A DNA stretch of 64,000 nt from an uncultured delta proteobacterium (GCA_963792965.1 CAWBYW010000004.1:32001-96000), one strand, 5' to 3'. Counted from the first letter of the stretch, positions 27,976 through 52,277 are shown. Notes: generated by a model not told the origin, from the sequence alone. Numbers and translations: made by a program.

Positions 27976-28359
27976 CTATGGGGGGCCGGCCTTTTTACCG
28001 ACCCATATCCTGAGGGTAGTCGTTACCGCGACGATGCCGAGCAGTAACAGGAGAAAGATGAGAAGATAACGGGAAGCCGCCTCGATCTGGCCTGCGACCT
28101 TTAACGTGAGCGCGGGCGGATTGTTGATGAGGTCCGCATAGCGGTAGTCACAACTGTAGAACTTCGCCGATATTCCTCCGATCAGGGCCGTGAGGATGAA
28201 CGCTATCTTTATGGTCCGGGACAGAAATGCACCCATACGGGGCGGGGCGAGTTTTGTCGCAATCGCATTGAGGTCACGCAGGACCACGAGCGACAACACG
28301 ACCCCGAGAAGGGCGCAGATCCCGAGCCCGAAACAATAGACGACGAGCACCGTCTGCAT
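27976..28359 (-). CDS. Small 3-TM membrane protein of unknown function
   Basis: Three hydrophobic segments; translationally coupled to the upstream paralog. Confidence 0.7.
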   Translation of the reverse strand: MQTVLVVYCFGLGICALLGVVLSLVVLRDLNAIATKLAPPRMGAFLSRTIKIAFILTALIGGISAKFYSCDYRYADLINNPPALTLKVAGQIEAASRYLLIFLLLLLGIVAVTTTLRIWVGKKAGPP

Positions 28360-28706
28360 TACCGCTCCCTTTTCCGCACCGTATAGGCCAGCAGGAGGAC
28401 CGAGAGGACGACGAGCAGCGTCCAGAGGAGACGAAATCCCATCCCCTCCACCTGATTCATCAGGCTCCAGAAGAGAACGAGCCGATCGGTCTTCGCCTCT
28501 GCGGGGTAGGTGCCGGCCATAGCCCCCGAGATCGAGGAAAGCATGATGACGGTGTAGATGATCCGGGACCAGAACCTTTTCACGCCGGCGTCCGGAAACA
28601 GCGCCGTCAGAAAGGCGGAGAGGCCGGACCTGAGCAATAGGGCGACGATGATGCCGAGCAGTACGGCCGCGCCCGTTCCCAAGAGGTAAAACTGGAGTAG
28701 TTCCAT
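28359..28706 (-). CDS. Small 3-TM membrane protein of unknown function
   Basis: Three hydrophobic segments; similar layout to 27976-28359. Confidence 0.7.
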   Translation of the reverse strand: MELLQFYLLGTGAAVLLGIIVALLLRSGLSAFLTALFPDAGVKRFWSRIIYTVIMLSSISGAMAGTYPAEAKTDRLVLFWSLMNQVEGMGFRLLWTLLVVLSVLLLAYTVRKRER

Positions 28707-28709
28707 GGG

Positions 28710-28916
28710 CTAATCCTTAAGATCGTTAAATATTTTTTTGCTCTCGGAAAAGGAGATACCGAGGGCCGTAAGGATCTTACGCTTGGTCTCCATCCGACAG
28801 CTCTTCCCCTTCTCGATACGATCGACGGTCAGCACGCTGACGCCGGCCTTGCGCGCCAATTCGGACTTTGAAAGAAGCATCTGTTCCCTGATCGCGGTCA
28901 AGGTATTCTTGGACAT
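28710..28916 (-). CDS. XRE/Cro-like HTH regulator
   Basis: LSKSELARKAGVSVLTVDRIEKG HTH; GGAGG-independent start at ATG 28916 chosen from the protein N-terminus. Confidence 0.85.
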   Translation of the reverse strand: MSKNTLTAIREQMLLSKSELARKAGVSVLTVDRIEKGKSCRMETKRKILTALGISFSESKKIFNDLKD

Positions 28917-29227
28917 GGGAGGTCTCAACTACTGATAGAAATGGCAATCATCCGTAATCCGGCTCTCAACGATGTGAGGAGGCTGAGTGTCCGGCGTACT
29001 TTCGTTCCGTATAGAGGGGATATCACGACTCCGTATTATCGCCAGAGATGGTTTGTTTATATAAGTAATGCATAGATTTATTTTATTTTGTTATAAAAGT
29101 CAAGAAAATTTATAAAAGAGAGATATTTAATTCATCTTTTCCGGACCTCGTCCCGAATCATGAGCGTCTGGAGATGTCTTAGTGTATCATGACGTGAGAT
29201 GAAAAACGAGGGCCCCGCGATTTTTCC

Positions 29228-29288
29228 TTGACTTTCCTGCACCCGTTGGATAGAGTAGTACTGTTACTATTAGAGTAGTAACAGTACT
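29228..29288 (+). promoter_or_regulatory. Sigma70-like promoter of the ord operon with an overlapping 13-bp inverted-repeat operator
   Basis: TTGACT (29228) -17 bp- TAGAGT (29251); AGTACTGTTACTA-N6-TAGTAACAGTACT at 29257-29288. Confidence 0.75.
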
Positions 29289-29345
29289 CAGAGACAAACG
29301 GCCGGGCTAACCGATAGTCGGCGTGATACATACGGGAGGGCAATT

Positions 29346-30392
29346 ATGAGCGATCCAATCAAAGTCGTCGTGTGGGGGACGGGCCAGATGGGGAGCGGCA
29401 TCATCAAGCTGGTGCGGCAGAAGAAGGGCATGGTGCTTTCGGGGGTAATCTCGGCCCGGAAGGAGCGGGACGGGATGGACGTGGGGACGGTGATCGGCGA
29501 AGAAAAACCGATCGGCCTCTCGATATCCACCGACGCCGCGGGCGTCCTGCGGAGGGTCAAGCCCGATATCGTCCTTCAGGCGACCTGTTCCCGGGTCGTA
29601 GACGCTTTTCCTGAGATCGAGACGATACTCTCGGCGGGGGCCAATGTCATCTCCATCGCCGAGGAGATGAGTTTTCCCCGTGTGAGCAGTCCCGACCTTG
29701 CCGACAAGATCGAGAAGCTCGCGAAGAAAAACCGGGTCTCGGCGCTCGGGACGGGCATCAACCCCGGCTTTGTCCTGGACCTCTTAGTTATCGCGCTGAC
29801 GGGCGTCTGTTTTCGGGTCGATTCCATCACCGCCCGGCGGGTCAACGACCTCTCCCCGTACGGGCCGTCGGTCCTCAAGACCCAGGGAGTGGGGATCAGT
29901 CCCGAGGAGTTCAAGAAAGGAGTGAAGGACGGCTCGGTGGTGGGGCACTTCGGCTTCCCCGAGTCGATCGGCATGATCGCAAAGGCGCTCGGCTGGGACA
30001 TCGAGAAAATCGAGCAAACGCGTGAACCCATCGTCAGCACCGTGGAGCGCAAAACCCCGTTCGTCACGATCAAACCGGGCTTCACCGCGGGCTGTAAGCA
30101 CACGGGCATCGGTTACATGAATAACAAGCCCGTCATCACCCTCATTCATCCCCAGCAGGTGCACCCGCACCTGGCAAACGTGACCACCGGCGACTATATC
30201 GAGATCTCGGGCAGCCCGAAGATTGCTTTTTCCGGCTCCCCGGAGATACCCGGCGGGATCGGGACGGAGGCCTTGGCCGTCAACATGATTCCCCAGGTCA
30301 TCAACGCCGTCCCGGGCCTCTATACCATGGCGGAGCTTCCGGTGCCGGCGGCGATCATGGGGGACGTAAGAAAACTCATCGGGGGGAAGTGA
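29346..30392 (+). CDS. ord: 2,4-diaminopentanoate dehydrogenase
   Basis: WGTGQMGSG Rossmann motif, SIAEEM, GTGINPGFVLD, RVNDLSPYG, GHFGFPES; adjacent to ortAB. Confidence 0.93.
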   Translation: MSDPIKVVVWGTGQMGSGIIKLVRQKKGMVLSGVISARKERDGMDVGTVIGEEKPIGLSISTDAAGVLRRVKPDIVLQATCSRVVDAFPEIETILSAGANVISIAEEMSFPRVSSPDLADKIEKLAKKNRVSALGTGINPGFVLDLLVIALTGVCFRVDSITARRVNDLSPYGPSVLKTQGVGISPEEFKKGVKDGSVVGHFGFPESIGMIAKALGWDIEKIEQTREPIVSTVERKTPFVTIKPGFTAGCKHTGIGYMNNKPVITLIHPQQVHPHLANVTTGDYIEISGSPKIAFSGSPEIPGGIGTEALAVNMIPQVINAVPGLYTMAELPVPAAIMGDVRKLIGGK

Positions 30393-30393
30393 C

Positions 30394-30714
30394 ATGGCCG
30401 GCATCGTGAAAAAAGGAAGCTGGGTTGAGATCTACCGGGTGATCCTCCCGCCGGGGGAGCGGGCTCCCCAGGTCCCGGATGACACAAAGAAAGTCCCGCT
30501 TGAGATGAAGGTCAAGGGATTCTTAGATGCGGACGCGCGGATCGGCGACGAGGTCCAGGTGATCACGGCCGCCGGCAGGGCCGTTGGTGGAAAGCTTTCG
30601 GTGGTCAATCCCGCGTACACCCACGGCTTTGGGGAGCCGATCCAGGAGCTTATCTCGATCGGCCGGGAGGCAAAGGAAATCCTGGCGGTCGCCCGCGCAG
30701 GGAAGACGAGGTAG
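30394..30714 (+). CDS. ortA: 2-amino-4-ketopentanoate thiolase alpha subunit
   Basis: KKGSWVEI, ERAPQVPDDTKKVPLEMKVKGFL, NPAYTHGFG. Confidence 0.93.
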   Translation: MAGIVKKGSWVEIYRVILPPGERAPQVPDDTKKVPLEMKVKGFLDADARIGDEVQVITAAGRAVGGKLSVVNPAYTHGFGEPIQELISIGREAKEILAVARAGKTR

Positions 30715-30719
30715 CGATA

Positions 30720-32126
30720 ATGGGAAAAATGGGATACGCCGAGGTGATGGCCAAAAAGGCCGAGGTGATGAAGAAATCCGTCGGCATCGACTACGACCTC
30801 TTTCGGACCGGCCCCCTCTCGTTTGACTACGAGGCGATGATGACCAAGACCGGCTACACGATCCAGGAGGCGGCCAGGATTCAGGAGGAGACGGCGGTGG
30901 GACATACCCCGCTGGTCGAGCTCAAGAACCTCACGGAGCTTGCCCGCGCGGCCGCACCAGTGGGAAAGGGGGCCCGGATCTTCGTCAAGGACGAGGCGCA
31001 GAACCCCTCGGGCTCGTTCAAGGACCGGCGCGCCTCCATCTCGGTCTACGAGGCGGCCAAGAAAGGGTACCCGGGGGTTTCGGCCGCCACGTCGGGCAAT
31101 TACGGGGCCGCCGTCGCCTCACAGGCGGCAAAGCGGAGCCTTGGATGCATCATCGTCCAGGAAGCCTTCGACTCGCGGGGCGTGGCCCAGCCGGAGATCG
31201 CGGAGAAGACGCGAGCCTGCGAGGCCTACGGCGCCGAGGTGATCAGGCTGAGCGTGGGCCCGGAGCTTTTCTACGTCTTTCTCACGATCCTCATGGAGAC
31301 CGGCTTTTTCAACGCCTCCCTCTATACGCCCTTCTCCGTCCTCGGCATCGAGACGCTCGGCCTCGAGATCGCGCGCGAGGTCAAGGAGCGGGAGGGGAGA
31401 CACCCCGACGTGGTGATCGCGACGCACGCGGGCGGCGGAAACGTCACCGGCACGGGGCGCGGGCTCCTCAAGGCCGGCGCCGACACGACGCAGCTAATCG
31501 CCGCCAGCGTCGACCTGTCGGGGCTGCACATGGCATCCGACACGGACTTCAACAGAAAATCGTTTACGACGGGCCACACCGGGTTCGGCATCCCGTTTGC
31601 CACGTGGCCCGACCGCGCGGACGTCCCCCGAAACGCCGCGCGGCCGCTCAGGTATATGGATAGATTCGTGACCGTCACCCAGGGGGAGGTCTTCTACATC
31701 ACCCAGTGCCTGGCGGAGCTGGAGGGGATGGAGCGCGGGCCGGCGGGCAACACCTCGCTGACGGCGGCGTTTGCCATAGCGAGGGAGCTGCCGAAGGATA
31801 AGATCATCGTGGTGCAGGAGACCGAGTATACCGGCGCGGGAAAGCACCCGCTTGCCCAGCTCAACCTCGCCAAGGCGATGGGGGTAAAGGTGCGGCGGGG
31901 AGACCCGCGAGAAAATATTCCCGGAAAGTCGATTGTTATCCCCGGGGAGCCCTCACAGATCTCCGTTGTCGACGTTGAGCTGGACCGGTTGCGCAGGTCG
32001 TATCTGAAAAACGCCAAAGAGGGGCTTGCCGGCGGGGAAAAGGCCAGTGACGTGGATATCGCATTTCTTGCCGCGGACACGAGGACGACCCCGGATTACG
32101 TGCGGGAGGTCCTCGGGACCCGATAG
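30720..32126 (+). CDS. ortB: 2-amino-4-ketopentanoate thiolase beta subunit (PLP)
   Basis: KDEAQNPSGSFKDRRA, ATSGNYG, ERGPAGN, QETEYTGAGKH. Confidence 0.94.
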   Translation: MGKMGYAEVMAKKAEVMKKSVGIDYDLFRTGPLSFDYEAMMTKTGYTIQEAARIQEETAVGHTPLVELKNLTELARAAAPVGKGARIFVKDEAQNPSGSFKDRRASISVYEAAKKGYPGVSAATSGNYGAAVASQAAKRSLGCIIVQEAFDSRGVAQPEIAEKTRACEAYGAEVIRLSVGPELFYVFLTILMETGFFNASLYTPFSVLGIETLGLEIAREVKEREGRHPDVVIATHAGGGNVTGTGRGLLKAGADTTQLIAASVDLSGLHMASDTDFNRKSFTTGHTGFGIPFATWPDRADVPRNAARPLRYMDRFVTVTQGEVFYITQCLAELEGMERGPAGNTSLTAAFAIARELPKDKIIVVQETEYTGAGKHPLAQLNLAKAMGVKVRRGDPRENIPGKSIVIPGEPSQISVVDVELDRLRRSYLKNAKEGLAGGEKASDVDIAFLAADTRTTPDYVREVLGTR

Positions 32127-32228
32127 GTGGACGGCGCGGACTGACGCGGAGAACCTGTCAGTGGGCCGCGGGACACGAAGGGACTGATAACGTCCTTTTC
32201 TGACTAATAAATTAGCAGGATTTGCGCC

Positions 32229-32570
32229 ATGGAGAGACCCGATACGTATCAGGAAAGGCGGCGGCACCTGAAGAAGCTCTCCGACGACGAGCTGAAGAGC
32301 TATTTCTGGGAGCTGGTCAACAAGATCATCGAGCCCATCAAGAACGAGGCCGAGACCCATACCTCGCCCTCCATCGAGCGCTCGGTGCTGTTGCGGATGG
32401 GCTTTTCGAGCATCGAGTCCAAGGCGCTCGTCGCGATGATGACCGAGCGCGGGTTATTGGGTCACGGGGCGGGAAACCTCATCCTGAGGGTCGCGCGTAA
32501 ACATAACCTCGACGTCAGGAGCGCGGGGCTTGCCCTGATCAACTCAACCCATTGGGACGACGTGAAATGA
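32229..32570 (+). CDS. oraS: D-ornithine 4,5-aminomutase alpha subunit
   Basis: HTSPSIERSVLLRMGFSSIE, GLLGHGAG. Confidence 0.94.
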   Translation: MERPDTYQERRRHLKKLSDDELKSYFWELVNKIIEPIKNEAETHTSPSIERSVLLRMGFSSIESKALVAMMTERGLLGHGAGNLILRVARKHNLDVRSAGLALINSTHWDDVK

Positions 32571-34756
32571 AGCCGCTTGACCCGAACAAGAAGCTCGATC
32601 TGGACGAAATCCTCAAGGACCTCGAACACTACCGGCCGAGGCGCACGGGATGGACGTGGAGGGAACCGGTCAAAGATCAGAAGATCGGCCCCTTCACCTA
32701 TAAAGACACCACGAGGCCGCTTGCGCACTCCGTCCCGCTTCCCTCCGCGCACTATTTCGGCAACATCGACCCCCAGTGTGATTTTGTCATCACCACCGAG
32801 ATCGCCTCGGGCCGCTTCGAGGACGATATCCGGCGGATGCGGATGGCCGCCTGGCACGGCGCCGATCATATCATGGTGATCCGCACCACCGGCCAGTCGC
32901 ACTTCGACGGGCTCATCGAGGGAACTCCGGAGGGGGTGGGCGGCGTGCCCATCACCCGAAAGCAGGTTCGGGCAAGCAGGAAGGCGCTGGACGCCGTCGA
33001 GGACGAGGTGGGACGGCCCATCAACTTTCACTCGTACGTGAGCGGCGTGGCGGGTCCCGAGATCGCGGTCCTCTTCGCCGAGGAGGGGGTCAATGGGGCG
33101 CACCAAGACCCGCAGTATAACGTGCTCTACCGCAACATCAACATGCACCGCTCGTTTGTGGACGCCGCCTGCGCGAAGAAGATCATGGCCGACGCCCGCA
33201 TCCTGCAGATCGACGGCGCCCACAACGCCAACGCCACTGCGCGTGAGGCGTGGAAGGTCATGCCGGAGCTGTTGGTCCAGCACGGGATAAACTGCGCCTT
33301 TTCAGAAGCGGTCGGGATGAAAAGGGAGCTGATCGCGCTTTCCACGGTGCCCCCCACCGCGCCGCCTGCGCCCAAGCTTGCCATCGACCTCCCATATGCC
33401 GTGGCGCTCAGGGATTTCTTCGAGGGCTTCAAGATGCGCGCCCAGCAGAACACGCGATATATGGAGGCCGACATGGCCGAGGCGACCATCACCCACGTGC
33501 TGGATACCCTCATCTCCCGCCTCACCTCGGCCGACATCCAGAGCACCATCACGCCCGACGAGGGACGCAACGTCCCCTGGCACTACAATAACATCCTCGG
33601 CGTTAACACCGCCCGCCAGACACTCATGGGGGTCGACGGACTTTCGGACCTGGTCGAGCTCAAGAAGGACGGCGTCCTTTCGGAGAAGGTCCGAGAGATC
33701 AAGGAGCGCGCGATACTGTTTCTCGAGGAGATCATCGAGATGGGCGGCTATTTTGCCGCGGTCCAGCAGGGCTCCTTCGTGGACTCCGGGCAGTTCCCCG
33801 AGCGGCGGGGCGACGGCATCTCCCGCGACCCCGCAGGTGGTGTGGCGGCGGGCACGATCGTCCGGCGCGAGGCCGACTATATGGCCCCGGTCTGCAGCCA
33901 CTTCGGGTACAATAAGCTTCCCCCCGGTAACACAAAGCCGTGCGACCCGATCGACGGCTGTACCCTCTGCCGGCCGGAGAAGATCGTCTACATCGACGAG
34001 CTGGACCGGGAGGATAACGTCGCGCGCCGCCTGACGGCGCCGAGGAGAGAAGCGGAGGAGGGCCTCATCCGTCCGGAGGTGGAGTGGGCCGGCGACGGCA
34101 TCGTCGTCGTGACGATATTTGTCCCGGAATCGCTCGAGGTGGCGGAGGCGGCGGCACTGGCAATGGCGGGAAAGATGGGAATCAGTGGGCCCGAGGTCAT
34201 CTCGCGGCGAATGATCCACCCGGCGGAGGGGAGCCTCTTTGAGGTCAAGGGAAGGCTGCAATACGCCGTAAGACGGGACGAGCTGGTCATCCCCAAGCGG
34301 GAGGAGCTTTTGTCCGAGGAGGAGATCACGGCGTTTGTCCGCGCGGGAAAGGTCTCGCTGGTGGCGGCCACGGTCGGCGAGGACGAGCACTCGGTGGGGA
34401 TGCGCGAGATCATCGACATCAAGCACGGCGGTGTCGAGAAATACGGTTTTATCTGCCACTACCTCGGCACCTCCGTCCCGATCGGCAAGGTGCTGGACGC
34501 GGCCCAGGAGACGGGATCGGCGATCGTCTTGATCTCCACGATCATCTCGCACAACGACATCCACCGCGCCAACATGAAGCGGCTCAGCGACCTGGCCGTG
34601 GAGCGGGGGATCAGGGACAAGCTGATCCTGATCGCCGGAGGCACCCAGGTCACCAACGACACGGCCCTTTCGTGTGGGCTTGACGCCGGATTCGGCAGGG
34701 GGACGAAGGGGCATCACGTCGCGAGCTTTATCGTGAAGAAGCTGCGAAAGAAATAG
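32567..34756 (+). CDS. oraE: D-ornithine 4,5-aminomutase beta subunit (AdoCbl + PLP)
   Basis: TTEIASGRFEDDIRRMRMAAWHGADH; B12 motif EDEHSVG; PLP lysine in IDIKHGG. Confidence 0.96.
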   Translation: MKPLDPNKKLDLDEILKDLEHYRPRRTGWTWREPVKDQKIGPFTYKDTTRPLAHSVPLPSAHYFGNIDPQCDFVITTEIASGRFEDDIRRMRMAAWHGADHIMVIRTTGQSHFDGLIEGTPEGVGGVPITRKQVRASRKALDAVEDEVGRPINFHSYVSGVAGPEIAVLFAEEGVNGAHQDPQYNVLYRNINMHRSFVDAACAKKIMADARILQIDGAHNANATAREAWKVMPELLVQHGINCAFSEAVGMKRELIALSTVPPTAPPAPKLAIDLPYAVALRDFFEGFKMRAQQNTRYMEADMAEATITHVLDTLISRLTSADIQSTITPDEGRNVPWHYNNILGVNTARQTLMGVDGLSDLVELKKDGVLSEKVREIKERAILFLEEIIEMGGYFAAVQQGSFVDSGQFPERRGDGISRDPAGGVAAGTIVRREADYMAPVCSHFGYNKLPPGNTKPCDPIDGCTLCRPEKIVYIDELDREDNVARRLTAPRREAEEGLIRPEVEWAGDGIVVVTIFVPESLEVAEAAALAMAGKMGISGPEVISRRMIHPAEGSLFEVKGRLQYAVRRDELVIPKREELLSEEEITAFVRAGKVSLVAATVGEDEHSVGMREIIDIKHGGVEKYGFICHYLGTSVPIGKVLDAAQETGSAIVLISTIISHNDIHRANMKRLSDLAVERGIRDKLILIAGGTQVTNDTALSCGLDAGFGRGTKGHHVASFIVKKLRKK

Positions 34757-34815
34757 GCGGGGAGGACTCCCTTCACCTTTTCAGGGGGGCAATGGACGGC
34801 ACGTTGAGGGATACC

Positions 34816-35535
34816 ATGTCTGATCTCATCGCCGTTACGCTGGATACCGATTGGGCCCATGACGAAGTCATCGCGTATACGATGGATATACTCAACGAGC
34901 ACGGTGTCCGCGCGACCTATTTTGCCACGAACGAATCACCGGTGCTGAAAAAGGTCGACGGGAGCCGGTTCGAGATCGGGATACACCCTGATTTCAATGG
35001 CACACTGGACCACGAGTCGAAAATAAAGGAGCTGCTCTCAATCTACCCCGACGCCAAGGGGGTGAGATCCCATACGCTTTTCCATTCGTGGAGCATCATG
35101 GATCTCTTCAAGAAGTATGGCTTTGTGTACGACTCAAATATCATCATGCCCTATTTTCCCGGGTTGAGGCCCATCGTCTGGTTCAATAACGTCGTGAGGA
35201 TTCCGTACTTCTGGGAGGACGAGGTCCATCTACTCTTCGGGAAGCAGTGCGAGCCGCGCACGCTGATGATGGGTGAGGCCGGCCTCAAGATATACAATTT
35301 TCATCCGATACATATATTCCTCAACACCGAAGACCTCGGGAGAATTGAAGCGGCACGGGGTTCATTTCAACGCCCGGACAAGCTTGAAAAACATAGAAAC
35401 ACGCGGACGAGGGGCTGTAAAGATATTTTCCTCGACGTTTTGGGCCGCGTGAGGGCCGATCAGGGCAAGACATATCGGATGATCGATATCGCCTCCGATT
35501 TTCGCGCTTCGGCGGCCGAATCCCCCTCGGATTGA
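34816..35535 (+). CDS. Polysaccharide-deacetylase-fold protein (WbmS-like)
   Basis: TLDTDWA, ATYFAT, EIGIHPDF, GVRSH, PYFWED, NFHPIHIFLN. Confidence 0.75.
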   Translation: MSDLIAVTLDTDWAHDEVIAYTMDILNEHGVRATYFATNESPVLKKVDGSRFEIGIHPDFNGTLDHESKIKELLSIYPDAKGVRSHTLFHSWSIMDLFKKYGFVYDSNIIMPYFPGLRPIVWFNNVVRIPYFWEDEVHLLFGKQCEPRTLMMGEAGLKIYNFHPIHIFLNTEDLGRIEAARGSFQRPDKLEKHRNTRTRGCKDIFLDVLGRVRADQGKTYRMIDIASDFRASAAESPSD

Positions 35536-35589
35536 CAGCCGCGGCAATGCTGACAGAGACGATGCCGCACTAAGGAAAGAGCTCGTCAG

Positions 35590-36946
35590 GTGAAAAGCCC
35601 CGATATCCTTGTCGCCGAGATCGGCAGCACCATAACGAAGCTCTCGGCCTTCGGGGGCATCGACGGCATAAAACCGTCGTTCCTCGGCCAGGGGGTCGCG
35701 CTGACGACCGTCGCCGAGGGGGACGTTACCGTCGGGCTCGTGCGCGCCGGCGATGATTTGAGATCGCGGTGTGGGGTCGACACGGGGAGAGTGGACGCCG
35801 AAGGGGCGGGACGAGAGGTCCTGCTATTGGCCGTCTCCTCGGCGGCGGGGGGACTGCGCATGACCGTGCACGGCCTTACCCGGGATATGACCCTGAGAGC
35901 GGCGCGGGAGGCGTCCCTCGGTGCGGGGGCGGTCGTCGTTTTTTCGACGGCGGGAGAAATTACCGCGGGCGACATCAATGAGGTCAGGCGTCTCTCCCCG
36001 AACCTGATGCTCCTTTCGGGGGGCGTAGACTATGGTGAGCGAGAGATCGTCGTGAAGAACGCCCGGGCGCTGGCCGGCGTCGGCGCTGGCGTCCCGGTCA
36101 TATACGCGGGCAATGTCGGCGCCAGGGGTGAGAGTCTCGGCGATACTGAGGGATGCGGGGGTCGAGCTCTTCGTCACCGAGAACGTCTATCCCGATATCG
36201 ACGAGCTCAACGTCGTGCCGGTACGCCGGATTATCCAGGAGGTCTTCGCCAAGCACATCATCACCGCGCCGGGTATGGACAAGGTAAAGGAAATGGCCGG
36301 CGGCTCCGTGATGCCGACGCCGGGGGCGGTATTGAAGGCCGCGGAGCTCCTCTTTGATGAGATCGGGGACGTTGCTGTGGTGGACGTGGGGGGGGCGACT
36401 ACCGACGTCCACTCGGTTACGGAGGGATCGGAGCAGCTCAGGGCAATGGCCGTCTCTCCCGAGCCCCTCTCCAAGAGGACGGTCGAGGGCGACCTGGGCG
36501 TATTCATCAACGCGCGGCAGATCGTCGAGGAATCGGGGGGAGGCATCGGAGCACTCGACGGCGTCGTGGCGCTGCCCAGAACCGACGCCGAAAGGGAAAA
36601 AACCGCGATCCTCACCAGGTGGGCGGTCGATCTCTCGCTCTGGCGGCACGCCGGCTCCATCAAGGTCTCTTACGGCACCTACGGGAGGAGCGAGATCGTG
36701 GAGGGGAGGGACCTGACGATGGTGAAGTATCTCATTGGAACGGGCGGGGCCCTCACGAGGATTGCCGGCGGAGCCGCGATCCTTCAGGGGATCCGCCGCG
36801 ATCCCCACAAGAGAAAGCTCCTTCCGCCGGCCGAGGCGCGCGTGCTCATCGACTCGGACTACATCATGGCCGCGGCGGGAATCCTCGGGGAGCACCGGAG
36901 ACAGGCCGCAACGGCCCTGCTGCTCAATAGCTTAGGGTTAGGATAA
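35590..36946 (+). CDS. GlmL/MutL-like reactivating factor for the B12 aminomutase, frameshifted near 36125
   Basis: VAEIGSTIT, SSAAGGLRM, LSGGVDYG, PTPGAV, DVGGATTDVHSV, KRTVEGDLG. Confidence 0.9.
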
Positions 36947-36949
36947 ACG

Positions 36950-38965
36950 ATGTCGGGACCGTACGTTACTATAGATCTGGCGAAAATCGAAGAGAACGCC
37001 CGTGTCATCACGGGGCTGTGTATGCGGCACGGCATCGAGGTCACGGGGGTCACGAAGGTGACGTGCGGGATACCCCACGTCGCCCGGGCGATGCTGGCGG
37101 GCGGGGTCACGGGGATCGGGGAGTCCCGCATGGAAAACATCCGCCGCCTCAAGGTCAACGGGATCAACGCCCCGATCATGCTGCTCAGGATACCGCCGCT
37201 TTCGGCCGTGGATGAGATCGTGACCGCGGTGGATGTCAGCCTCAACTCCGAGCTTTCGGTCATCAGGGCGCTTTCCGAGGCGGCGGCGCGGCGGGGGCTC
37301 GTGCACGATATCATCCTCATGGTGGACCTCGGCGACTTGAGAGAGGGGATCTGGCCCGACGACCTGATCGGGCTCGTCGAAAAGGCCGTGAAGCTTTCCG
37401 GGGTACGGATCGTGGGGCTGGGGGCCAACCTCTCCTGTTACGGTGGGATTATCCCGAGTTGCGGCAACATGGAGGCGCTGGTGCACTACGCTGAGGAGTT
37501 AGAGCGCCGCTTCGGGCTCTCGTTGAAGTACATCTCCGCCGGCAATTCGAGCTCGCTACTGCTCGTCGAGGCCGGCGGGATGCCCGAACGGGTGAACCAC
37601 CTTCGGATCGGCGAGGGAATCCTCCTCGGGAGAGAGACGGTCGAGCGGCGCCCGTGGCCCGGTACGTCCCAGGACGCCTTTGTGCTGCGCGCGGAGGTCA
37701 TCGAGCTCAAGGAAAAGCCGTCGGTTCCCATCGGGGAGCGGGGGCAGGACGCCTTCGGGGGCGTGCCGGATTTCGGCGAGGGGCACGGGGCGGAGCGGCT
37801 GGAGGGCGCACGGCGAGAGATGGTACGGGCGATCCTCAACGTCGGGCGTGAGGACGTCATCGTGGAGGGAATGACCCCCCTGGACACGCGCCTTACTATT
37901 CTCGGCGCATCGAGCGACCACCTCATCGTCGATGTAACGAAGGCGGTGGGCGATGTGACCCTCGGCGGTGAGCTCGGCTTTCTCATGAACTACGGCGCGC
38001 TCCTTGCCGCCATGACCTCGTCGTATGTGGAAAAGAGGCCCATTCTCAAGGATGAGGACAAGATGAATAGCCGCCCTATCGCGATCATCGGCGTGCCGAG
38101 CTGGATCGGCGCGCTCGAGCCGGGTACGGATGCCGCGCCCCGTGCGCTCCGGGACGCGGGGTTGGTCACCAAACTTGCCGCCCTCGGGCTCTCAGTCGAG
38201 GACAGGATGAATGTATCGGTAAGCGACACGATCCGCGGGGACGACTTCGGGGAAAATGCCGCCGAGGTCGCCCGTATCGCCCTTGGGACGGCGGACGTCG
38301 TCCAACAGGCGATAAAAGACGACTGCATCCCGCTTGTCCTCGGAGGAGATCACAGCACAAGCCTCGGTGTCCTGGTGGGGCTTTTCCGGAGCCTGTCTCC
38401 GTTCGGCCTGATCTGGTTTGACGCCCACGGCGATTTTGTCGTTCCCGATGAGAAGGATGAGAAGAGGATCAGCCGCATGGTGTTGGCCTTGTCCCTCGGC
38501 CACGGCGACGCGAGGCTCAACAGGCTGGGCGGGAGTTCGCCCTTGGTCTCTCCGGAAAACGTCGTCATCGTGGGACTGAGGGACGTGGGGCAAGATGAGG
38601 CAAAGCGCCTGTCCGAATCCGGCGTTACGATCTTCACGATGGAGGACATTGACGCCCTCGGCATGAAGGAAGTTGTCTATCGTGGGCTACGCGCGGCGGG
38701 GACGGGAACAAAGGGGATACACGTGAGCCTCGATATCGACGTCGTGGATACCCAGGCGGCGCCGGGTGTACGGTTGCCGGTAGCGGGGGGGATCACCTAC
38801 CGGGAGACGCATCTGGCCATGGAGCTCCTCTCGCAGTCCGGTTTGATCCGTTCGATGGATCTGGTCGGGGTGGATATGGAGGCCGATCCGGAGGGGAGGA
38901 CCGCCCAAGTCGCCCTTGAGTTTATCCTCTCGGCGTTCGGGAAGAAGATCCTTGGAAGGCTATGA
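36950..38965 (+). CDS. orr: Ornithine racemase (Orr) fused to a C-terminal arginase/ureohydrolase-fold domain
   Basis: aa 1-365: GVTKV (PLP Lys), DLGDLREG, NLSCYGG, NHLRIGE, GASSDH. From aa 372: IIGVP, GGDHS, DAHGD, SLDID, GGITYRE. Confidence 0.88.
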   Translation: MSGPYVTIDLAKIEENARVITGLCMRHGIEVTGVTKVTCGIPHVARAMLAGGVTGIGESRMENIRRLKVNGINAPIMLLRIPPLSAVDEIVTAVDVSLNSELSVIRALSEAAARRGLVHDIILMVDLGDLREGIWPDDLIGLVEKAVKLSGVRIVGLGANLSCYGGIIPSCGNMEALVHYAEELERRFGLSLKYISAGNSSSLLLVEAGGMPERVNHLRIGEGILLGRETVERRPWPGTSQDAFVLRAEVIELKEKPSVPIGERGQDAFGGVPDFGEGHGAERLEGARREMVRAILNVGREDVIVEGMTPLDTRLTILGASSDHLIVDVTKAVGDVTLGGELGFLMNYGALLAAMTSSYVEKRPILKDEDKMNSRPIAIIGVPSWIGALEPGTDAAPRALRDAGLVTKLAALGLSVEDRMNVSVSDTIRGDDFGENAAEVARIALGTADVVQQAIKDDCIPLVLGGDHSTSLGVLVGLFRSLSPFGLIWFDAHGDFVVPDEKDEKRISRMVLALSLGHGDARLNRLGGSSPLVSPENVVIVGLRDVGQDEAKRLSESGVTIFTMEDIDALGMKEVVYRGLRAAGTGTKGIHVSLDIDVVDTQAAPGVRLPVAGGITYRETHLAMELLSQSGLIRSMDLVGVDMEADPEGRTAQVALEFILSAFGKKILGRL

Positions 38966-39807
38966 GACAACCGATTGACGAGACCATCGTATCTCTCGAG
39001 GATCTGGGGTTGACTCAGTACGAGGCGAAGGTGTATCTTGCGTTGTTGGCCGACCACCCCGCCACCGCCTACACGATTTCGCGCCGCTCGGGGGTACCGC
39101 ACTCGCGGGTTTATGAGGTCGCCCGGAGGCTGATGGCCAAGGGGTTTGTGGTTCGCTCGGAGACGAACCCGGATCGCTTCTCGCCGCTCTCCCCGCGCGA
39201 GCTGGTCGAGCGGCTGGCCGGGGAGCACGAGCGGGTGATAGCGGAACTGAAACAGCGGCTGGAAACGATCCCCTTCCGTTCGGATTTCGACCCGGTATGG
39301 AACATAAACGAACGGACCGACGCCATAAAGAAGGCCGTAGAAATCATCGGGGGCGCGCGGCACAAGATCTATATCGGCGTATGGGACGAGGAGCTGGGCG
39401 AGCTTATCGAAGACCTGAGGACAGCGCACGGACGCGGGGTACAGATCGTCTTCCTCATATACGGACGGACGACGGTGGATTTCGGCCGGGCTTTCTACCA
39501 CAACACCGGCCATATCGAGGACGTGGTGTACCTCGGCAGGAGCATCGATATCGTCGCGGATTCCGAGGCGGCGGTCAGCGGGAGGCTCGGGGCGGAGGTG
39601 AAAAACGGCGCGGGCAAGAACGGCGACCGGACCGAATACCTCCCCTGTCAAGTCATCTGGACGAAGAACCGCGGGCTCATCAACGTCATAGAGGGCTACA
39701 TTATTCACGATTTTTATCTCGCCGAGATATTCGGCGTCTTTCAAAAGGAGATCGAAGAGGTATTCGGGGCCAACATGACGGCGTTGCGGAAAAAATATCG
39801 GGGATAA
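38962..39807 (+). CDS. TrmB-family transcriptional regulator
   Basis: LGLTQYEAKVYLALL...SRRSGVPHSRVYEV winged HTH plus an effector-binding domain. Confidence 0.9.
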   Translation: MRQPIDETIVSLEDLGLTQYEAKVYLALLADHPATAYTISRRSGVPHSRVYEVARRLMAKGFVVRSETNPDRFSPLSPRELVERLAGEHERVIAELKQRLETIPFRSDFDPVWNINERTDAIKKAVEIIGGARHKIYIGVWDEELGELIEDLRTAHGRGVQIVFLIYGRTTVDFGRAFYHNTGHIEDVVYLGRSIDIVADSEAAVSGRLGAEVKNGAGKNGDRTEYLPCQVIWTKNRGLINVIEGYIIHDFYLAEIFGVFQKEIEEVFGANMTALRKKYRG

Positions 39808-39824
39808 TAAAAGAGGAGTCGAGA

Positions 39825-40988
39825 ATGGAAAAAACGAAAGATCACCTGACCTTTATGGAGGCAGCGTCCACCGTTGCGGGATACGGGATCGGCGCGGGGA
39901 TCATGGCCGTGCCGTACCTTGCCGTTCGGTCGGGCGTGTTGCCGCTGGTCGGCATTATGGTGGTGGCCTATCTGATCAGCATCCTGTTTCACCTGATGAT
40001 CGTCGACATGGTGATGCGCGACGGGGGCAAGACGCAGCTCATGGAGGTGTTGGCAAAATACCTCTTTACGGGATGGGGCGGAAAACTATTCACCTGGTTA
40101 TTCTTTATCCTGATCGTCTTTGCCTTTTTCGGAACCCTCATTACCTACATCGTGGGAGGAGGGGAGGCGCTCAACGGCACGTTTGACGTGCCGCTCGTGC
40201 TGGGCTTCTTTATTACCTATCTTTTGGCCGCGGTGGTCGTCTTCTTCGGCCTGAAAGCGGTCGGCGTCGTGGAAAAATTTTCAGTCATCGGTATCGCCGT
40301 CGTCGTTTCCGCCCTTCTGATCCTTTCCCTGTTCAGACCCTTCCACCTGACGATGCTCGTCAAAGGTGCGGGGGTCAAGGAGGCGCTGGCGCTGTACGGG
40401 ATGATCATGTTTTCCTTTTATTCGATGTTTTCCGTGCCACAGGCCGTCAAGGGACTCGCGTGGAAGCCGAGGCTTGCCCCCTGGGCCGTGGTGACCGGTA
40501 TCGGGATCACCTTCTTCACGGTGCTCCTCATCACGCTCGCCGCGATGGGGGTCTCCAAGGAAGTAACGAAGATCGCCATCCAGGGCTGGTCGGACGCCAT
40601 CGGACCATTGGCGGCATACTTCGGGACGATATTCGTGCTGTTGGCGTTCCTCACGAGCTTCTGGTCCATCTCCCTGGCGCTGGCCGACGTCCTCCACGAG
40701 CGTTTGCGGTGGAACGATAAGCTCTGCTGGCTCTTGGCGACGCTCCCGTGCCTGCTGGTATCTTTTTTCAAGCTGCAGAATTTTCTCGAATATCTCAGGC
40801 TCACCGGAGGGGTGATCGGGATACTCCTGGTCGTCATAATGGTCCCGGCGTATATCTCCGTCAAGAAGAAGGGTGAGGTCAAGAAGCCGGCCTGGAGCCT
40901 CGGCTATTTTGGCGGCGGTGTTTTCTTGTGGATCGTCGTCATCGGCTTTCTGCTCATGGCGGTGGGCTCCGCGGTCCCGATCAAATAA
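39825..40988 (+). CDS. Amino-acid permease (Trp/Tyr permease-like, APC superfamily)
   Basis: AGYGIGAGIMAVPY TM1 motif, AFLTSFWS, about 11 TM segments; RBS GAGGAG. Confidence 0.82.
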   Translation: MEKTKDHLTFMEAASTVAGYGIGAGIMAVPYLAVRSGVLPLVGIMVVAYLISILFHLMIVDMVMRDGGKTQLMEVLAKYLFTGWGGKLFTWLFFILIVFAFFGTLITYIVGGGEALNGTFDVPLVLGFFITYLLAAVVVFFGLKAVGVVEKFSVIGIAVVVSALLILSLFRPFHLTMLVKGAGVKEALALYGMIMFSFYSMFSVPQAVKGLAWKPRLAPWAVVTGIGITFFTVLLITLAAMGVSKEVTKIAIQGWSDAIGPLAAYFGTIFVLLAFLTSFWSISLALADVLHERLRWNDKLCWLLATLPCLLVSFFKLQNFLEYLRLTGGVIGILLVVIMVPAYISVKKKGEVKKPAWSLGYFGGGVFLWIVVIGFLLMAVGSAVPIK

Positions 40989-41134
40989 GCCCGTCTCCCG
41001 ATGGGAGGCGCGCGCGGTGATAAAAGTCTTGTGGCCGCGCGGCCAAGCGCGGTAGTTTATGAGCATGGTGCAGGGATGAATTTCGCGTGCACAGGCGGTC
41101 CTATTTTCAGAACGAACGACGTGAAAGGAGCGGT

Positions 41135-42451
41135 ATGAAAAAGAAAATTATCATACTCGGTGCGGCGGGAAGGGATTTCCATAACTTCAACGTCCGGTTC
41201 CGCGACAACGAATCGTATGAGGTCGTGGCGTTTACCGCAACGCAGATCCCCAATATCGAAGGACGGGTCTACCCGACGGAGCTGGCGGGAAAGCTCTATC
41301 CCAGGGGAATCCCCATCCGTCCCGAGGACGAGATGGAGCGGCTGATCGAGAAGTCAGAGATTGACGCCGCGATCTTCTCCTACAGCGACGTCCCGCACAC
41401 CTACGTGATGCACATCGCCTCGCGGGTGATTGCCGCCGGCGCCGATTTCACACTCCTGTCGGCAAAGAGCACCATGCTCAAGTCGACGAAACCGGTCATC
41501 TCGGTGACCGCCGTACGCACAGGGAGCGGCAAGAGCCAGACCACGCGAAAAGTGTGCGAGACGCTCAGGGAGATGGGAAAGCGGGTCGTGGCGGTCCGGC
41601 ACCCGATGCCCTACGGCGACCTGAAGAAGCAGATCGTCCAGCGATTTGCCGAATACAAGGACTTTGACATCCACGACATCACCATAGAGGAGCGCGAGGA
41701 GTACGAGCCGCTTGTCGAGATGGGGATCGTCGTATATGCGGGCGTCGACTATGAGAAGATACTCAGGGCGGCGGAAAAGGAGGCCGACGTGGTGGTATGG
41801 GACGGCGGCAACAACGACACGTCGTTTTTCGCATCGGACCTCTCGGTGGTGGTATTTGACCCGCACCGCGCGGGTCACGAGCTTACCTATCACCCGGGAG
41901 AGGTGAACCTGCGGCTGGCGGATGTGGCGGTGATCAATAAGGTGGACACGGCGGAAAAACAGAACATCGAGATCGTCAGGGCCAACATAGAAAGAATCAA
42001 CCCGAAGGCGCGGATCGTGTCGGCGAATTCGCCCGTGAGCATCGCCGACCCGAATGCGGTAAAGGGAAAGCGCGTGCTTGTCGTGGAAGACGGCCCGACG
42101 CTCACCCACGGCGAGATGAAATTCGGGGCGGGGGTCATCGCGGCCCGGAAATTCGGAGCATCAGAGCTCATGGATCCGAAGCCGCATGCGGTCGGCTCCA
42201 TCAAACAGGCCTTCGTAAAGTATCCCCACATCGAGAACCTCCTTCCCGCCATCGGATACGGAGAACAACAGATGAAGGATCTGGCCGCGACCATCAACGC
42301 CACCGACTGCGACGTCGTCATGCTGGCTACGCCCATAGACCTCACCAAGGTCATCACCATCAAGAGGCCGACGGTGCGCGTGCGCTACGGCTACGGGGAC
42401 GCGGGCTCGCCGACGCTCGGGCAAATCGTGAAAGAGCGATTCGGGAAGTAG
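41135..42451 (+). CDS. arcE: Arginine synthetase ArcE-like protein (cyclic 2,3-diphosphoglycerate synthetase-like P-loop family)
   Basis: GAAGRDFHNFN, FTATQIP, AVRTGSGKSQT, RHPMPYG, EEREEYE, WDGGNND, EDGPTLTHG; next to carbamate kinase. Confidence 0.82.
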   Translation: MKKKIIILGAAGRDFHNFNVRFRDNESYEVVAFTATQIPNIEGRVYPTELAGKLYPRGIPIRPEDEMERLIEKSEIDAAIFSYSDVPHTYVMHIASRVIAAGADFTLLSAKSTMLKSTKPVISVTAVRTGSGKSQTTRKVCETLREMGKRVVAVRHPMPYGDLKKQIVQRFAEYKDFDIHDITIEEREEYEPLVEMGIVVYAGVDYEKILRAAEKEADVVVWDGGNNDTSFFASDLSVVVFDPHRAGHELTYHPGEVNLRLADVAVINKVDTAEKQNIEIVRANIERINPKARIVSANSPVSIADPNAVKGKRVLVVEDGPTLTHGEMKFGAGVIAARKFGASELMDPKPHAVGSIKQAFVKYPHIENLLPAIGYGEQQMKDLAATINATDCDVVMLATPIDLTKVITIKRPTVRVRYGYGDAGSPTLGQIVKERFGK

Positions 42452-42587
42452 GGATTGTCACAGACGAGGGCGCGTGTGTGCGGCCGGGGGCGGCGAGAAC
42501 GTAGACCATAGGGACCGGGGGCGGTGGATTCACTCCCCCGGCAGGTTTTTCCCCGAGCTCTCATTGGATATGCAGGGGGAGGACGGT

Positions 42588-43550
42588 ATGAGCAGGAAAA
42601 AACGTGCCGGGACGGCGGTGGTGGCGCTGGGCGGAAACGCCATCGTCAAGGAGAAGGAAGCGGGGACCATCGCCCAGCAGTTCCGGAACACCCGGACGTC
42701 GCTGGTAGGGGTAATGGGCCTCGTTAGGGAGGGCTGGGAGCTGCTCATCACGCACGGCAACGGCCCCCAGGTGGGAAACCGCCTGATCCTCAACGAGCTT
42801 GCCCACGAGATGGTGCCGGACCTGCCGCTCGGGGTGCTCTGCGGCGACACCGAGGGGGCGATGGGCTACATGATCCAGCAGTCGATGTTCAATAAGCTCA
42901 TTTTCCACTCGATACAGAAACCGGTCGTGACGGTCATCACCCAGACGGTCGTCGATTCCGAGGACCTGTCGATGAGACACCCCACAAAGCCGGTCGGCCC
43001 GTTCTTTTTGCGCGAGGAGGCCGAGCGCCTTACGCAGGAAAAGGGGCTGCTTTTCATGGAAGACGCAGGGAGGGGCTTCAGACAGGTGGTGCCGTCGCCC
43101 TATCCGCTTAAGATCGTCGAGATCGACGTGATCCGGCGGCTCCTGGCATCCGGGGTCATCGTGGTGGCCATCGGCGGCGGGGGGATCCCCGTGGTTCTCC
43201 AGCCCGATCGGACGCTCGAGGGGATAGACTGCATCATCGACAAGGACCTCGCCTCGAGCCTTGCCGCGCGCGAGCTCGGGGCGTCCCTCTTTGTCATGGT
43301 AACCGGCGTAGACCGAGTGGCGCTCAACTACCGAAAACCAAACCAGGTGGACCTTGACAGGATGTCGGTGGACGAGGCCCGGCGCTATCAGGACGAAGGC
43401 CACTTCTTCGCGGGGAGCATGGGGCCCAAGATCAGGGCGGCCCTCGAATACTTAGAGGCGATACCGAAGGGCCGGGTCCTCATCACGTCCCCCGAGCGGC
43501 TCAAAGACGCCGTGGCGGGCGATGGGGGGACGACGATCTACCGGGAGTGA
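42588..43550 (+). CDS. arcC: Carbamate kinase
   Basis: ALGGNA, THGNGPQVG, PTKPVGPF, GGGGIPV, IDKD, GSMGPK. Confidence 0.96.
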   Translation: MSRKKRAGTAVVALGGNAIVKEKEAGTIAQQFRNTRTSLVGVMGLVREGWELLITHGNGPQVGNRLILNELAHEMVPDLPLGVLCGDTEGAMGYMIQQSMFNKLIFHSIQKPVVTVITQTVVDSEDLSMRHPTKPVGPFFLREEAERLTQEKGLLFMEDAGRGFRQVVPSPYPLKIVEIDVIRRLLASGVIVVAIGGGGIPVVLQPDRTLEGIDCIIDKDLASSLAARELGASLFVMVTGVDRVALNYRKPNQVDLDRMSVDEARRYQDEGHFFAGSMGPKIRAALEYLEAIPKGRVLITSPERLKDAVAGDGGTTIYRE

Positions 43551-43959
43551 CTCTCGCCGCTTTCTTTTCTTAGTTTCTTCTTCTTGCACGAAAGGGCGCC
43601 GCGGCTCACGGATCGGACGGCAACAGCGCCTCTCCGATCAAAGACCTGGCTCGCGCCACCACCGTGTCCGTCGCGCCGGATAACGAATAACGTCTCTCCC
43701 GAAGGGACAAACAGGTCAACGCCCTGTTCCCATCCCTCCAAGCTTTCCGCCCAAAGACAGGGATTTCTCATTAGGCCGTTGCATTCTGTTTCGCTTTGAT
43801 ATACTATTTAGCCCATCTCCAACGCCCTCCTCGTGCAGAGAATAATGACTTCACGCAACCGGCGCCTCTCACGGGGGGAGACTTCCCGCAAAATTGCCGA
43901 AGAGGTGAACCTTTTTTATCTCTCCCACCGACAAGCTTCCATAAGGAGGAAAGACGAAG

Positions 43960-45453
43960 ATGGCCATCAAGACGAAAGAGCAGTACATCCAGAGCATCAG
44001 GTCGCTCGCACGCAACGCCTTTATCCTCGGCAGCCGCGTGGATAATATCGTCGATCACCCCATGAACCGAGCGGCCGTCAATTCGATAGCCGAGAGCTTC
44101 GATATGGCCGCGGATCCGAAGACGAGGCCCGTTGCGGGGGCGGTCTCTACCCTCACCAATGAGCCGATAAATCGCTACAATGCGCTCAATTTCTCCGTTG
44201 ACGACCTGGTCAAGCGCGGCGAGATGGAGCGAATGATCGGCTACCGGACGGCCCAGGGATGTCCCCGGGCGACCGGGCTTGACGCCATCAACGCCGTCTA
44301 CAGCGTCGCGTACGATGCGGACCAGAAACATCGGACGGACTACCTTGGGCGTTTCAAGAAATGGCTCACCGCCGTCCATGACAACGACCTTGCCGTCAGC
44401 GGGGCGATGACCGATGTCAAGGGTGACCGATCAAAGCGCCCCGCCGCCCAGGACGATCCGGACATGTACCTGCACGTCATTAAGAGGACCAAGGACGGGG
44501 TCGTCGTGCGCGGGGCCAAGGCTCACCAGACCGGCGCCGTCAACTGCCACGAGCACCTGGTCATGCCGACGCGGGGCATGAGAGAGGACGAAAAAGACTA
44601 TGCGATCGCCTTCGCGGTCCCCGTCGACGCGTCCGGACTCTACCATATCTACGGCCGCCAGCCGTCCGACACCAGGAAGCTCGAGGAGGGCGCCTCCATG
44701 GACCTGGGGATGGGGAGGTTCGGTGGGTGCGAAACCCTCATGGTATTCGATGACGTCTTTATCCCGACGGAACGAATCTTCCTCTCGGGCGAGGTAGAGT
44801 TCACGTGGCCGCTCGTCAACAGGTTCGCAATCGGGCACCGCTCTTCCTACGGAGTCGCGGGGGCGGGCGTGGGTGACGTGGCAATCGGCGCAGCGGTGGC
44901 CATCGCCCAGGCAAACGGCGTCATCCACGACAAAATCATCTGGGACAAGATCGCGGACCTGATTATCATGAGCGAGACGCTCTACGGCCTGGGCCTTTCG
45001 TCCATGCTCAAGGGGAGGCCGACCCCCTCGGGGATCTATTTCGCGGACTATGTCCTGGGCGGCGTGGCCAAGTACCAGGCGACGATCATCCCCTTCCAGA
45101 TGTGCCGGATCGCACAGGATATCTGTGGAGGGCTGGTGGCAACGATGCCAAGCGAGTCGGACTTGAAGAACGAAGAGGTCGGCCCCTTCATCGAAAAATA
45201 CCTGAGGGGAGTCTCCGCCATCCCCACCGAGCACAGGATGAGGCTGGTCAGGCTGATCGAATGTATGAGCCTGGGGACCTTCTCCGCCGATCTCCTCACG
45301 ATGGGGCTCCACGGCGCCGGATCGCCTTATCCCCAGAAGATGATGGTCCTTGCGGACTACAAGGACAAGATCCCCAAGCTGGTGGCGCTTGCGATGTATC
45401 ACGCGGGGATCACCGATGAGTTTACGTATTCCGAAACCGAGGGAGGAAAATAG
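43960..45453 (+). CDS. 4-hydroxybutyryl-CoA dehydratase (AbfD)/HpaB-family flavoprotein, divergent
   Basis: GAMTDVKGDRS, DPDMYLH, RGAKAHQTG, YGRQPSDTR, FDDVFIP, HGAGSP. Confidence 0.85.
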   Translation: MAIKTKEQYIQSIRSLARNAFILGSRVDNIVDHPMNRAAVNSIAESFDMAADPKTRPVAGAVSTLTNEPINRYNALNFSVDDLVKRGEMERMIGYRTAQGCPRATGLDAINAVYSVAYDADQKHRTDYLGRFKKWLTAVHDNDLAVSGAMTDVKGDRSKRPAAQDDPDMYLHVIKRTKDGVVVRGAKAHQTGAVNCHEHLVMPTRGMREDEKDYAIAFAVPVDASGLYHIYGRQPSDTRKLEEGASMDLGMGRFGGCETLMVFDDVFIPTERIFLSGEVEFTWPLVNRFAIGHRSSYGVAGAGVGDVAIGAAVAIAQANGVIHDKIIWDKIADLIIMSETLYGLGLSSMLKGRPTPSGIYFADYVLGGVAKYQATIIPFQMCRIAQDICGGLVATMPSESDLKNEEVGPFIEKYLRGVSAIPTEHRMRLVRLIECMSLGTFSADLLTMGLHGAGSPYPQKMMVLADYKDKIPKLVALAMYHAGITDEFTYSETEGGK

Positions 45454-52259: not shown

Positions 52260-52277
52260 TTCTTACTTTACGGGTCG

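Follow-up and report, generated by a model that had tools for sequence, protein, structure and literature searches.

The window analysed here is a stretch of 64,000 nucleotides from an uncultured delta proteobacterium (GCA_963792965.1, CAWBYW010000004.1:32001-96000); all coordinates are positions in this whole stretch. Between 29346 and 43550 it holds 12 genes, all on the plus strand, which were identified by family-profile scans (Pfam and NCBIfam): the genes of B12-dependent ornithine oxidation, followed by those for a regulator, a permease, a predicted ArcE-type arginine synthetase and a carbamate kinase. Probably the genes form one catabolic operon, or two operons in tight linkage, leading from arginine to acetyl-CoA, alanine, CO2 and ammonia. 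The genes and the accompanying signals are as follows (scores in bits):

29228-29256, plus strand: promoter-like TTGACT-17-TAGAGT, 5' of ord (consensus match only).
29257-29288, no strand: perfect inverted repeat with 13-nt arms and a 6-nt spacer, a candidate operator.
29346-30392, plus strand: ord, 2,4-diaminopentanoate dehydrogenase (NF040740, 488; cut-off 400).
30394-30714, plus strand: ortA, 2-amino-4-oxopentanoate thiolase subunit (NF040739, 132.6; cut-off 70).
30720-32126, plus strand: ortB, pyridoxal phosphate subunit of the thiolase (NF040741, 796.5; cut-off 550).
32229-32570, plus strand: oraS, D-ornithine 4,5-aminomutase small subunit (PF16552, 153; no NCBIfam match).
32552-34756, plus strand: oraE, B12-binding large subunit of the aminomutase (NF040743, 1308.7; cut-off 800).
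34792-35535, plus strand: WbmS-family polysaccharide deacetylase (PF22537, 180; PDB 3hft, 128).
35590-36946, plus strand: GlmL-like Or-4 (NF040744, split over two frames).
36950-38050, plus strand: Orr (ornithine racemase) domain of a fused gene (NF040742, 405.6; cut-off 480).
38060-38965, plus strand: arginase-like domain of the fused gene (PF00491, 192.7; TIGR01229, 189.5, cut-off 227.6).
38962-39807, plus strand: TrmB-family transcriptional regulator (PF01978, 83.1; PF11495, 31.8, partial).
39825-40988, plus strand: permease, a distant relative of the Trp/Tyr (HAAAP) permeases (PF03222, 43.7; TIGR00837, 38.8).
41135-42451, plus strand: predicted arcE-type arginine synthetase, 438 amino acids (similarity to Thermococcales proteins; no curated family matched).
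42588-43550, plus strand: arcC, carbamate kinase (NF009007, 341.9; cut-off 266).
43542-43564, plus strand: terminator-like hairpin at the 3' end of arcC, its tail rich in T (consensus match only).

Direction and order of the 12 genes are as given in the preliminary description of this DNA. Two entries of its gene list had to be corrected: the 'orr/ureohydrolase' is a single fusion of 671 amino acids, and the glmL-like gene lies in two frames as assembled. Its starting position, 29228, is that of the promoter-like hexamer pair (the first gene begins at 29346). Ord, OrtA, OrtB and OraE all exceed their NCBIfam equivalog cut-offs and oraS is present; inspection of start candidates points to ATG 32567 as the likely start of oraE, within a frame that is open from 32552. 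The Orr half scores below its cut-off, but its position in the cluster and its 43-57% identity to the orr genes of six other loci (L169, L170, L171, L176, L186 and L188) and of the ora clusters L003 and L009 favour the assignment. The product of arcC reaches 339.6 bits against TIGR00746, slightly below the cut-off of 358.25, and its start is most likely ATG 42588 rather than GTG 42474. Ratios of dN/dS were 0.10-0.21 across the cluster genes tested, a set that leaves out OraE, with most neighbours of the fused gene at 0.10-0.16 and GlmL at 0.17-0.21.

A surplus base at about 36133 divides the GlmL-like gene into two reading frames, 35590-36132 and 36134-36946. NF040744 matches the one frame with 205.3 bits (profile positions 2-168) and the next with 332.6 bits (171-447). 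The junction was placed with the intact orthologue of locus L166, to which the sequence on either side aligns perfectly, in neighbouring frames; the orthologues of L168, L167, L003, L009 and L188 are in frame as well. A sequencing or assembly indel is the likeliest cause, because argH (two frame pieces, G000:C18:14246-15590) and carB (five pieces, G000:C4:119077-122262) of the own genome, and the gene for ornithine carbamoyltransferase (OTC) in three relatives, are split too; in addition, lpxC of the own genome has an in-frame TGA. The assembly thus seems to carry many indel errors, and therefore split genes should not be read as pseudogenes here. We presume the GlmL-like protein to be an accessory or reactivating protein of the aminomutase.

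The deacetylase gene is peculiar to the window genome, where it separates oraE from the glmL-like gene; in the closest relatives this interval measures about 70-85 nt. A homologue was found neither in the 14 regions fetched from the family and phylum nor in L166-L168. The idea that it is an N-acetylornithine deacetylase feeding the pathway was rejected, given that it is of the polysaccharide-deacetylase WbmS type and missing from the cluster in the relatives examined. It probably stands outside the pathway.

Central to the interpretation is the 438-residue product of 41135-42451. A sequence search gave more than 8000 relatives of 60-67% identity, spread over many phyla and named 'GTPase' or 'cyclic 2,3-diphosphoglycerate synthase' in the databases. 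Compared with named Pyrococcus and Thermococcus members of the ArcE family, it is 64% identical to the P. furiosus protein over 437 residues with 0 gaps (606 bits) and 63-64% identical, again without gaps, to those of T. chitonophagus, a Thermococcus sp., P. abyssi and P. kukulkanii (594-609 bits for these comparisons); a Thermoproteota member is 42% identical. TK2200 of Thermococcus kodakarensis was characterised as the arginine synthetase ArcE by Michimori et al. (PMC11032458), and that paper describes arcE homologues throughout the Thermococcales and widely in bacteria, as well as a weak resemblance to cyclic 2,3-diphosphoglycerate (cDPG) synthetases.

The sole sequence match of our protein among solved structures is indeed a cDPG synthetase, 9sxb (31.5 bits, local, over 114 residues). 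Its AlphaFold model (pLDDT 93.4) has the cDPG synthetase 8oru as best fold match, at 16% identity and a TM score of 0.47. LpxK (4ehy), which is the structure superposed on TK2200p in PMC11032458, is found among the fold matches at rank 3 (E 5e-9, TM 0.65 on the target). Residues G130, G132, K133 and S134 of the P-loop GSGKS fall in invariant or near-invariant alignment columns. Given the gap between these scores and those obtained with the Thermococcales proteins (together with the fold match), the protein is set apart from the cDPG synthetases, in keeping with the preliminary description. Among the matches listed, 80 loci with homologues of 60-67% identity were inspected for neighbouring genes (tblastn with the window proteins, E <= 1e-10, at least 50% coverage): arcC is found in the same locus, usually directly beside arcE, in at least 28 of them and an OTC gene in at least 10, both numbers being lower bounds since many contigs are short. 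An identity as ArcE-type arginine synthetase is thereby supported; the activity itself is a prediction from sequence.

The own genome assembly (88.85% complete, 42 contigs) contains one OTC (383.8 bits against a cut-off of 280.85), located on another contig than the cluster at C18:16854-17753. It is flanked by argD and argG with argH adjoining, in the order argD-argF-argG-argH. The preliminary description had stated correctly that OTC is not in the window, and that the module does without arginine deiminase (arcA) agrees with the absence of any TIGR01078 match in this 88.85% complete genome; the module is, however, not complete within the window, the OTC being encoded elsewhere. The only protein of the amidinotransferase superfamily (PF02274) in the own genome is DDAH-like, with 265 residues (G000:C25; L085 1147-1944), 197.6 bits to NF045660 (below the cut-off) and 154.7 bits to PDB 3rhy; it is a possible other source of citrulline, from methylated arginine. 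No urease scored above the cut-off in this genome. Given the presence of argG, argH and a carB-type carbamoyl phosphate synthetase, biosynthesis can do without ArcE and ArcC. The genome also carries lpxC, and the nearest named loci belong to an 'uncultured delta proteobacterium' (L166, L168) and to 'Thermodesulfobacteriota' (L167), consistent with the lipopolysaccharide-bearing, non-clostridial host that was proposed earlier.

Conservation of the cluster was surveyed in a phylum sample of 401 genomes, including the host family (f1; 10 genomes from the five genera g1-g5). OraE is present in 11 of the 401: the window genome, the nine other members of the family and a single genome from a different family. 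Within the family, ArcE, OraE and the Orr fusion each occur in all 10 genomes. The permease gene lies directly 5' of arcE in 10/10, and arcC follows arcE in nine (the tenth contig stops at this point). The complete linked cluster, which the preliminary description had reported from this DNA, is seen in six of the 10 genomes (genera g1, g3 and g4); in genus g5 the contig is broken at the junction. When searched at E <= 1e-60, OTC seemed to be missing from all four genomes of the nearest genus; a relaxed search found it frame-split in three.

Similar arrangements are observed outside the family, where genes for ArcE, OTC and ArcC lie beside ora in G120, L003 and L009. In G120, ord-ortAB-oraSE-orr adjoins OTC-arcC and arcE. 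The order is ord...orr-arcC-OTC-arcE in L009 (a metagenome-assembled genome, MAG, of Bacillota) and ...orr-AMMECR1/LigB-radical SAM-OTC-arcE in L003 (a Symbiobacterium MAG). Locus L188 (a Eubacteriales MAG) reads ...orr-arginase-arcA-OTC-arcC; since arcA-OTC-arcC here follows orr-arginase, ArcE takes the place of ArcA in an otherwise equivalent design. Among five genomes other than the window's that have orr or ora genes beside arginine genes, three have ArcE only, one has arcA only and one has both. Side observations on L003 (5802-8116 and 12261-13706) are that orr and OTC are separated by a gene fusing AMMECR1 with LigB and by a radical-SAM gene, and that another ArcE paralogue, with 61% identity to that of the window, is located 1.9 kb downstream of the first.

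The Orr and arginase-like parts form one open frame (36947-38965). The arginase-like domain is closest to true arginases (218.8 bits to 1cev, the Bacillus caldovelox arginase), and aligned to 1cev it keeps GGDHS, DAHGD and SLDIDVVD, as do the fusions of genus g4; its dN/dS of 0.17-0.18 indicates purifying selection. We take these to be the metal-ligand motifs of arginases, which presumably further depend on a catalytic His and on a loop binding the alpha-carboxylate of the substrate (SGNxHGM). This loop reads EKRISRM instead of SGNIHGM in the window. An alignment of the nine domains that could be extracted from the host family with three stand-alone arginases shows SGN(I/V)HGM replaced in 9/9 fused domains and kept in 3/3 stand-alone proteins (and in 8/8 stand-alone arginases of a wider alignment). 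Furthermore, the first His of GGDHS has become Asp in five of the nine fused domains, and a ligand Asp has become Gly in three. Because of the replaced loop, together with the TIGR01229 score under the cut-off, the domain is called 'arginase-like' rather than arginase. Orr fusions are also found in two Hyphomicrobiales MAGs (L169 and L170): here the arginase-like part, of about 225 residues, has lost all motifs while the C-terminal FILSAFGK tail is kept; no ora genes were seen in the 10-kb flanks of L170. Four Bacillota loci (L171, L176, L186 and L188) have a separate, canonical arginase gene after orr. A domain that is no longer an arginase may serve as a sensor of arginine or ornithine, as an oligomerisation scaffold or as a hydrolase for another guanidino compound.

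With regard to regulation, the regulator combines a winged helix (PF01978) with a partial C-terminal match to PF11495 (positions 2-65 of 233). The fused gene and trmB share 4 nt, stop over start, and the permease gene begins 17 nt after trmB. The inverted repeat lies directly 3' of the promoter-like site and has a 20-nt core, GTTACTATTAGAGTAGTAAC, at 29263-29282, which is identical 5' of ord in all four g4 genomes and has one mismatch in g3. The core is absent from both g2 genomes examined (with up to four mismatches allowed), and the g2 clusters are also without trmB. This co-occurrence of palindrome and trmB across genera suggests that they are a pair, with the TrmB-like protein binding the palindrome and controlling the ord promoter as repressor or activator. 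The TACT...AGTA half-sites, which we take to be those of archaeal TrmB, are also contained in the core. Promoter-like sites (8 found against 4.4 +/- 2.2 in shuffles) and terminator-like hairpins (15 against 12.2 +/- 2.8) are not enriched; hence the sites listed above are weak by themselves and only compatible with one transcription unit. An Rfam scan of 27500-44500 gave nothing at E <= 0.1 and no cobalamin riboswitch. A 72-residue open reading frame (ORF) with an XRE/HipB-like helix-turn-helix lies divergent from ord (28710-28928, minus strand; TIGR03070, 33 bits, below the cut-off) and could be a second local regulator.

Taken together, the gene content probably serves the following pathway. 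The permease would import arginine, or exchange it for a product, and ArcE would convert arginine, ADP and Pi to citrulline, NH3 and ATP. The single OTC of the genome, encoded in argD-argF-argG-argH, would phosphorolyse citrulline to L-ornithine and carbamoyl phosphate, from which ArcC could gain a second ATP. After racemisation of ornithine by the Orr domain, OraSE (helped by the GlmL-like protein) would shift the amino group to yield 2,4-diaminopentanoate, Ord would oxidise this to 2-amino-4-oxopentanoate with formation of one NAD(P)H, and OrtAB would cleave the product with CoA to acetyl-CoA and alanine. These steps from ornithine onwards are those of the oxidative ornithine pathway as drawn in Fig. 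2f of PMC8803604, and the combination of arginine deiminase with ornithine is described for C. sticklandii (PMC3091704). Acetyl-CoA may provide up to a third ATP, a candidate enzyme being the ADP-forming acyl-CoA synthetase-type gene at 125-2090 of the window, and expression of the pathway would respond to the TrmB-like regulator, acting on the ord promoter through the conserved palindrome. The gene at 125-2090 is of the acetate-CoA ligase (ADP-forming) type; its reading is divided between two ORFs, 125-1561 and 1593-2090.

While the catabolic role of the cluster is probable, a more specific version is put forward only tentatively and with rather less than even confidence: that the fused domain is no longer an L-arginase (a pseudo-enzyme, or a re-specialised one), that ArcE took over the step from arginine to ornithine, and that the whole is a three-ATP fermentation under a palindrome-binding, TrmB-type regulator. 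A number of observations weigh against the proposed pathway. In genus g2 (three genomes) permease-arcE-arcC lies on another contig than the ora cluster and both loci are without trmB, so the coupling of ora and arcE is not obligatory. OTC is part of the cluster in none of the 10 family genomes, the sole copy of the own genome is encoded in a biosynthetic operon, and in the family genome G125 (89% complete) OTC was not found even by a relaxed search. Genome G402, from which L009 comes, bears ArcE and in addition an arcA-like gene that scores 437.6 bits (below the cut-off). The spacers of 146 nt between the permease gene and arcE and of 136 nt between arcE and arcC leave room for separate promoters, and the GlmL-like gene is frameshifted as it stands in the assembly. 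Finally, ArcE activity is known from the T. kodakarensis enzyme alone, and the Thermococcales comparisons given above concern other family members than the characterised TK2200 itself.

Several other explanations have to be weighed. Arginine might mainly enter by hydrolysis, a possible second route to ornithine that the preliminary description had not weighed: the arginase-like domain would make L-ornithine and urea and pass the ornithine to the racemase to which it is fused, with ArcE and ArcC as a side route or for another purpose. The kinship with true arginases, the metal motifs kept in the window genome and in genus g4 and the purifying selection all fit this, and the four Bacillota loci show that arginase followed by Orr is an established operon design. 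On the other hand, all nine fused domains of the family have the loop replaced and something other than His at the catalytic-His position. The first metal-ligand His and a ligand Asp are lost in part of them, the L169 and L170 fusions are devoid of arginase motifs, TIGR01229 stays below its cut-off and no urease was found in the own genome to make use of the urea. We therefore regard arginase action as the main entry as unlikely. Still less probable is that the cluster consists of two unrelated modules, ora and permease-arcE-arcC, lying side by side with no metabolic or regulatory coupling. In its favour are the lack of linkage in genus g2 (three of the 10 genomes in the family), the spacers of more than 130 nt 5' of both arcE and arcC and the single occurrence of the palindrome, at the ord promoter. 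Against this, ArcE- or arginine deiminase-pathway genes adjoin ora in at least four separate lineages with differing gene orders (f1, G120, L003/L009 and L188), ornithine is the product of the one module and the substrate of the other, and the fused gene, trmB and the permease gene are tightly spaced.

An anabolic role of ArcE and ArcC, in which they form arginine out of citrulline or provide pyrimidine synthesis with carbamoyl phosphate, was described for T. kodakarensis (2026). The ArcE reaction can run both ways, and in that organism, which is without carbamoyl phosphate synthetase, carbamoyl phosphate comes from this pathway (PMC11032458, PMC13260591). The present genome possesses argG, argH and a carB-type synthetase (argH and carB being frame-split), and arcE and arcC sit among catabolic genes and a permease gene, which makes such a role here very improbable. 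That the 438-residue protein is a cDPG synthetase, as the names of many homologues in the source databases and the best structural match would have it, is practically negligible as an explanation: the similarity to 9sxb and 8oru is as low as reported above, and the neighbouring genes are arcC and OTC, not those of glycolysis.

Some features of the flanking regions may be added. At 43960-47507, beginning 410 nt past arcC, we find a gene of the HpaB/4-hydroxybutyryl-CoA-dehydratase family, four paralogues of which occur at other places in the genome, and a 684-residue AMP-binding enzyme whose C-terminal half is without any match. The GC content drops to 0.42 at 54001-56000, compared to about 0.6 elsewhere, and seven ORFs scanned between 52294 and 63977 gave no Pfam match; 52000-64000 may be foreign DNA.

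As to its meaning, the role of ArcE in bacteria is stated in PMC11032458 to be unevaluated. The cluster described here, together with the independent look-alikes, points to a definite task for the protein in bacteria: it would stand in for arginine deiminase as the first step of a fermentation from arginine through ornithine to acetyl-CoA, raising the predicted yield to an unusually high value of up to three substrate-level ATP per arginine. At the same time, the 'clostridial' B12-dependent ornithine pathway emerges as common to a whole family of diderm, Thermodesulfobacteriota-like bacteria. A bacterial ArcE, the Orr::arginase-like fusion and the candidate regulator-operator pair are offered by the cluster as testable items.

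No paper connecting arcE to oraSE was found, but supplementary figures S2, S10 and S11 of PMC11032458, on the neighbourhoods and distribution of arcE, may already show some ora-linked loci. Among the closest known systems is the arginine synthetase pathway of T. kodakarensis with ArcE (TK2200), ArcB (TK0871) and ArcC (TK2158) (PMC11032458, PMC13260591). In both, OTC is encoded away from arcE; in the window the ArcE-family gene adjoins that for carbamate kinase, and no arcA was found in the genome. Differences are the bacterial host (whose own genome also has carbamoyl phosphate synthetase, argG and argH), the placement of arcE-arcC within a cluster for B12-dependent ornithine oxidation with a permease and a TrmB-like regulator, and the fate of ornithine, which would go to acetyl-CoA and not to proline synthesis.

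With the cluster of C. sticklandii and C. difficile (PMC3091704, PMC8803604) it shares all six pathway genes, among them a probable orr, and the GlmL-like gene in a similar order, with scores at the equivalog level for Ord, OrtA, OrtB and OraE. Unlike that cluster, it belongs to a diderm host outside the Bacillota (OraE being confined to the host family plus one other genome in the phylum sample), has Orr fused to an arginase-like domain, carries arcE and arcC attached and contains an inserted WbmS-type deacetylase gene. Similar to the arcABC design of L188, a module from arginine to ornithine and a carbamate kinase are placed after orr (or orr-arginase), but with ArcE instead of ArcA, which would yield one more ATP per arginine (PMC11032458), and with OTC outside the cluster. 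The fused domain resembles the B. caldovelox arginase in its fold and binuclear-metal motifs and differs from bacterial arginases in the replaced catalytic-His/substrate loop, in the fusion to a pyridoxal phosphate-dependent racemase and in a score under the equivalog cut-off. What is particular here is the diderm host family, the Orr::arginase-like fusion, a cluster without OTC and the putative pair of TrmB and palindrome.

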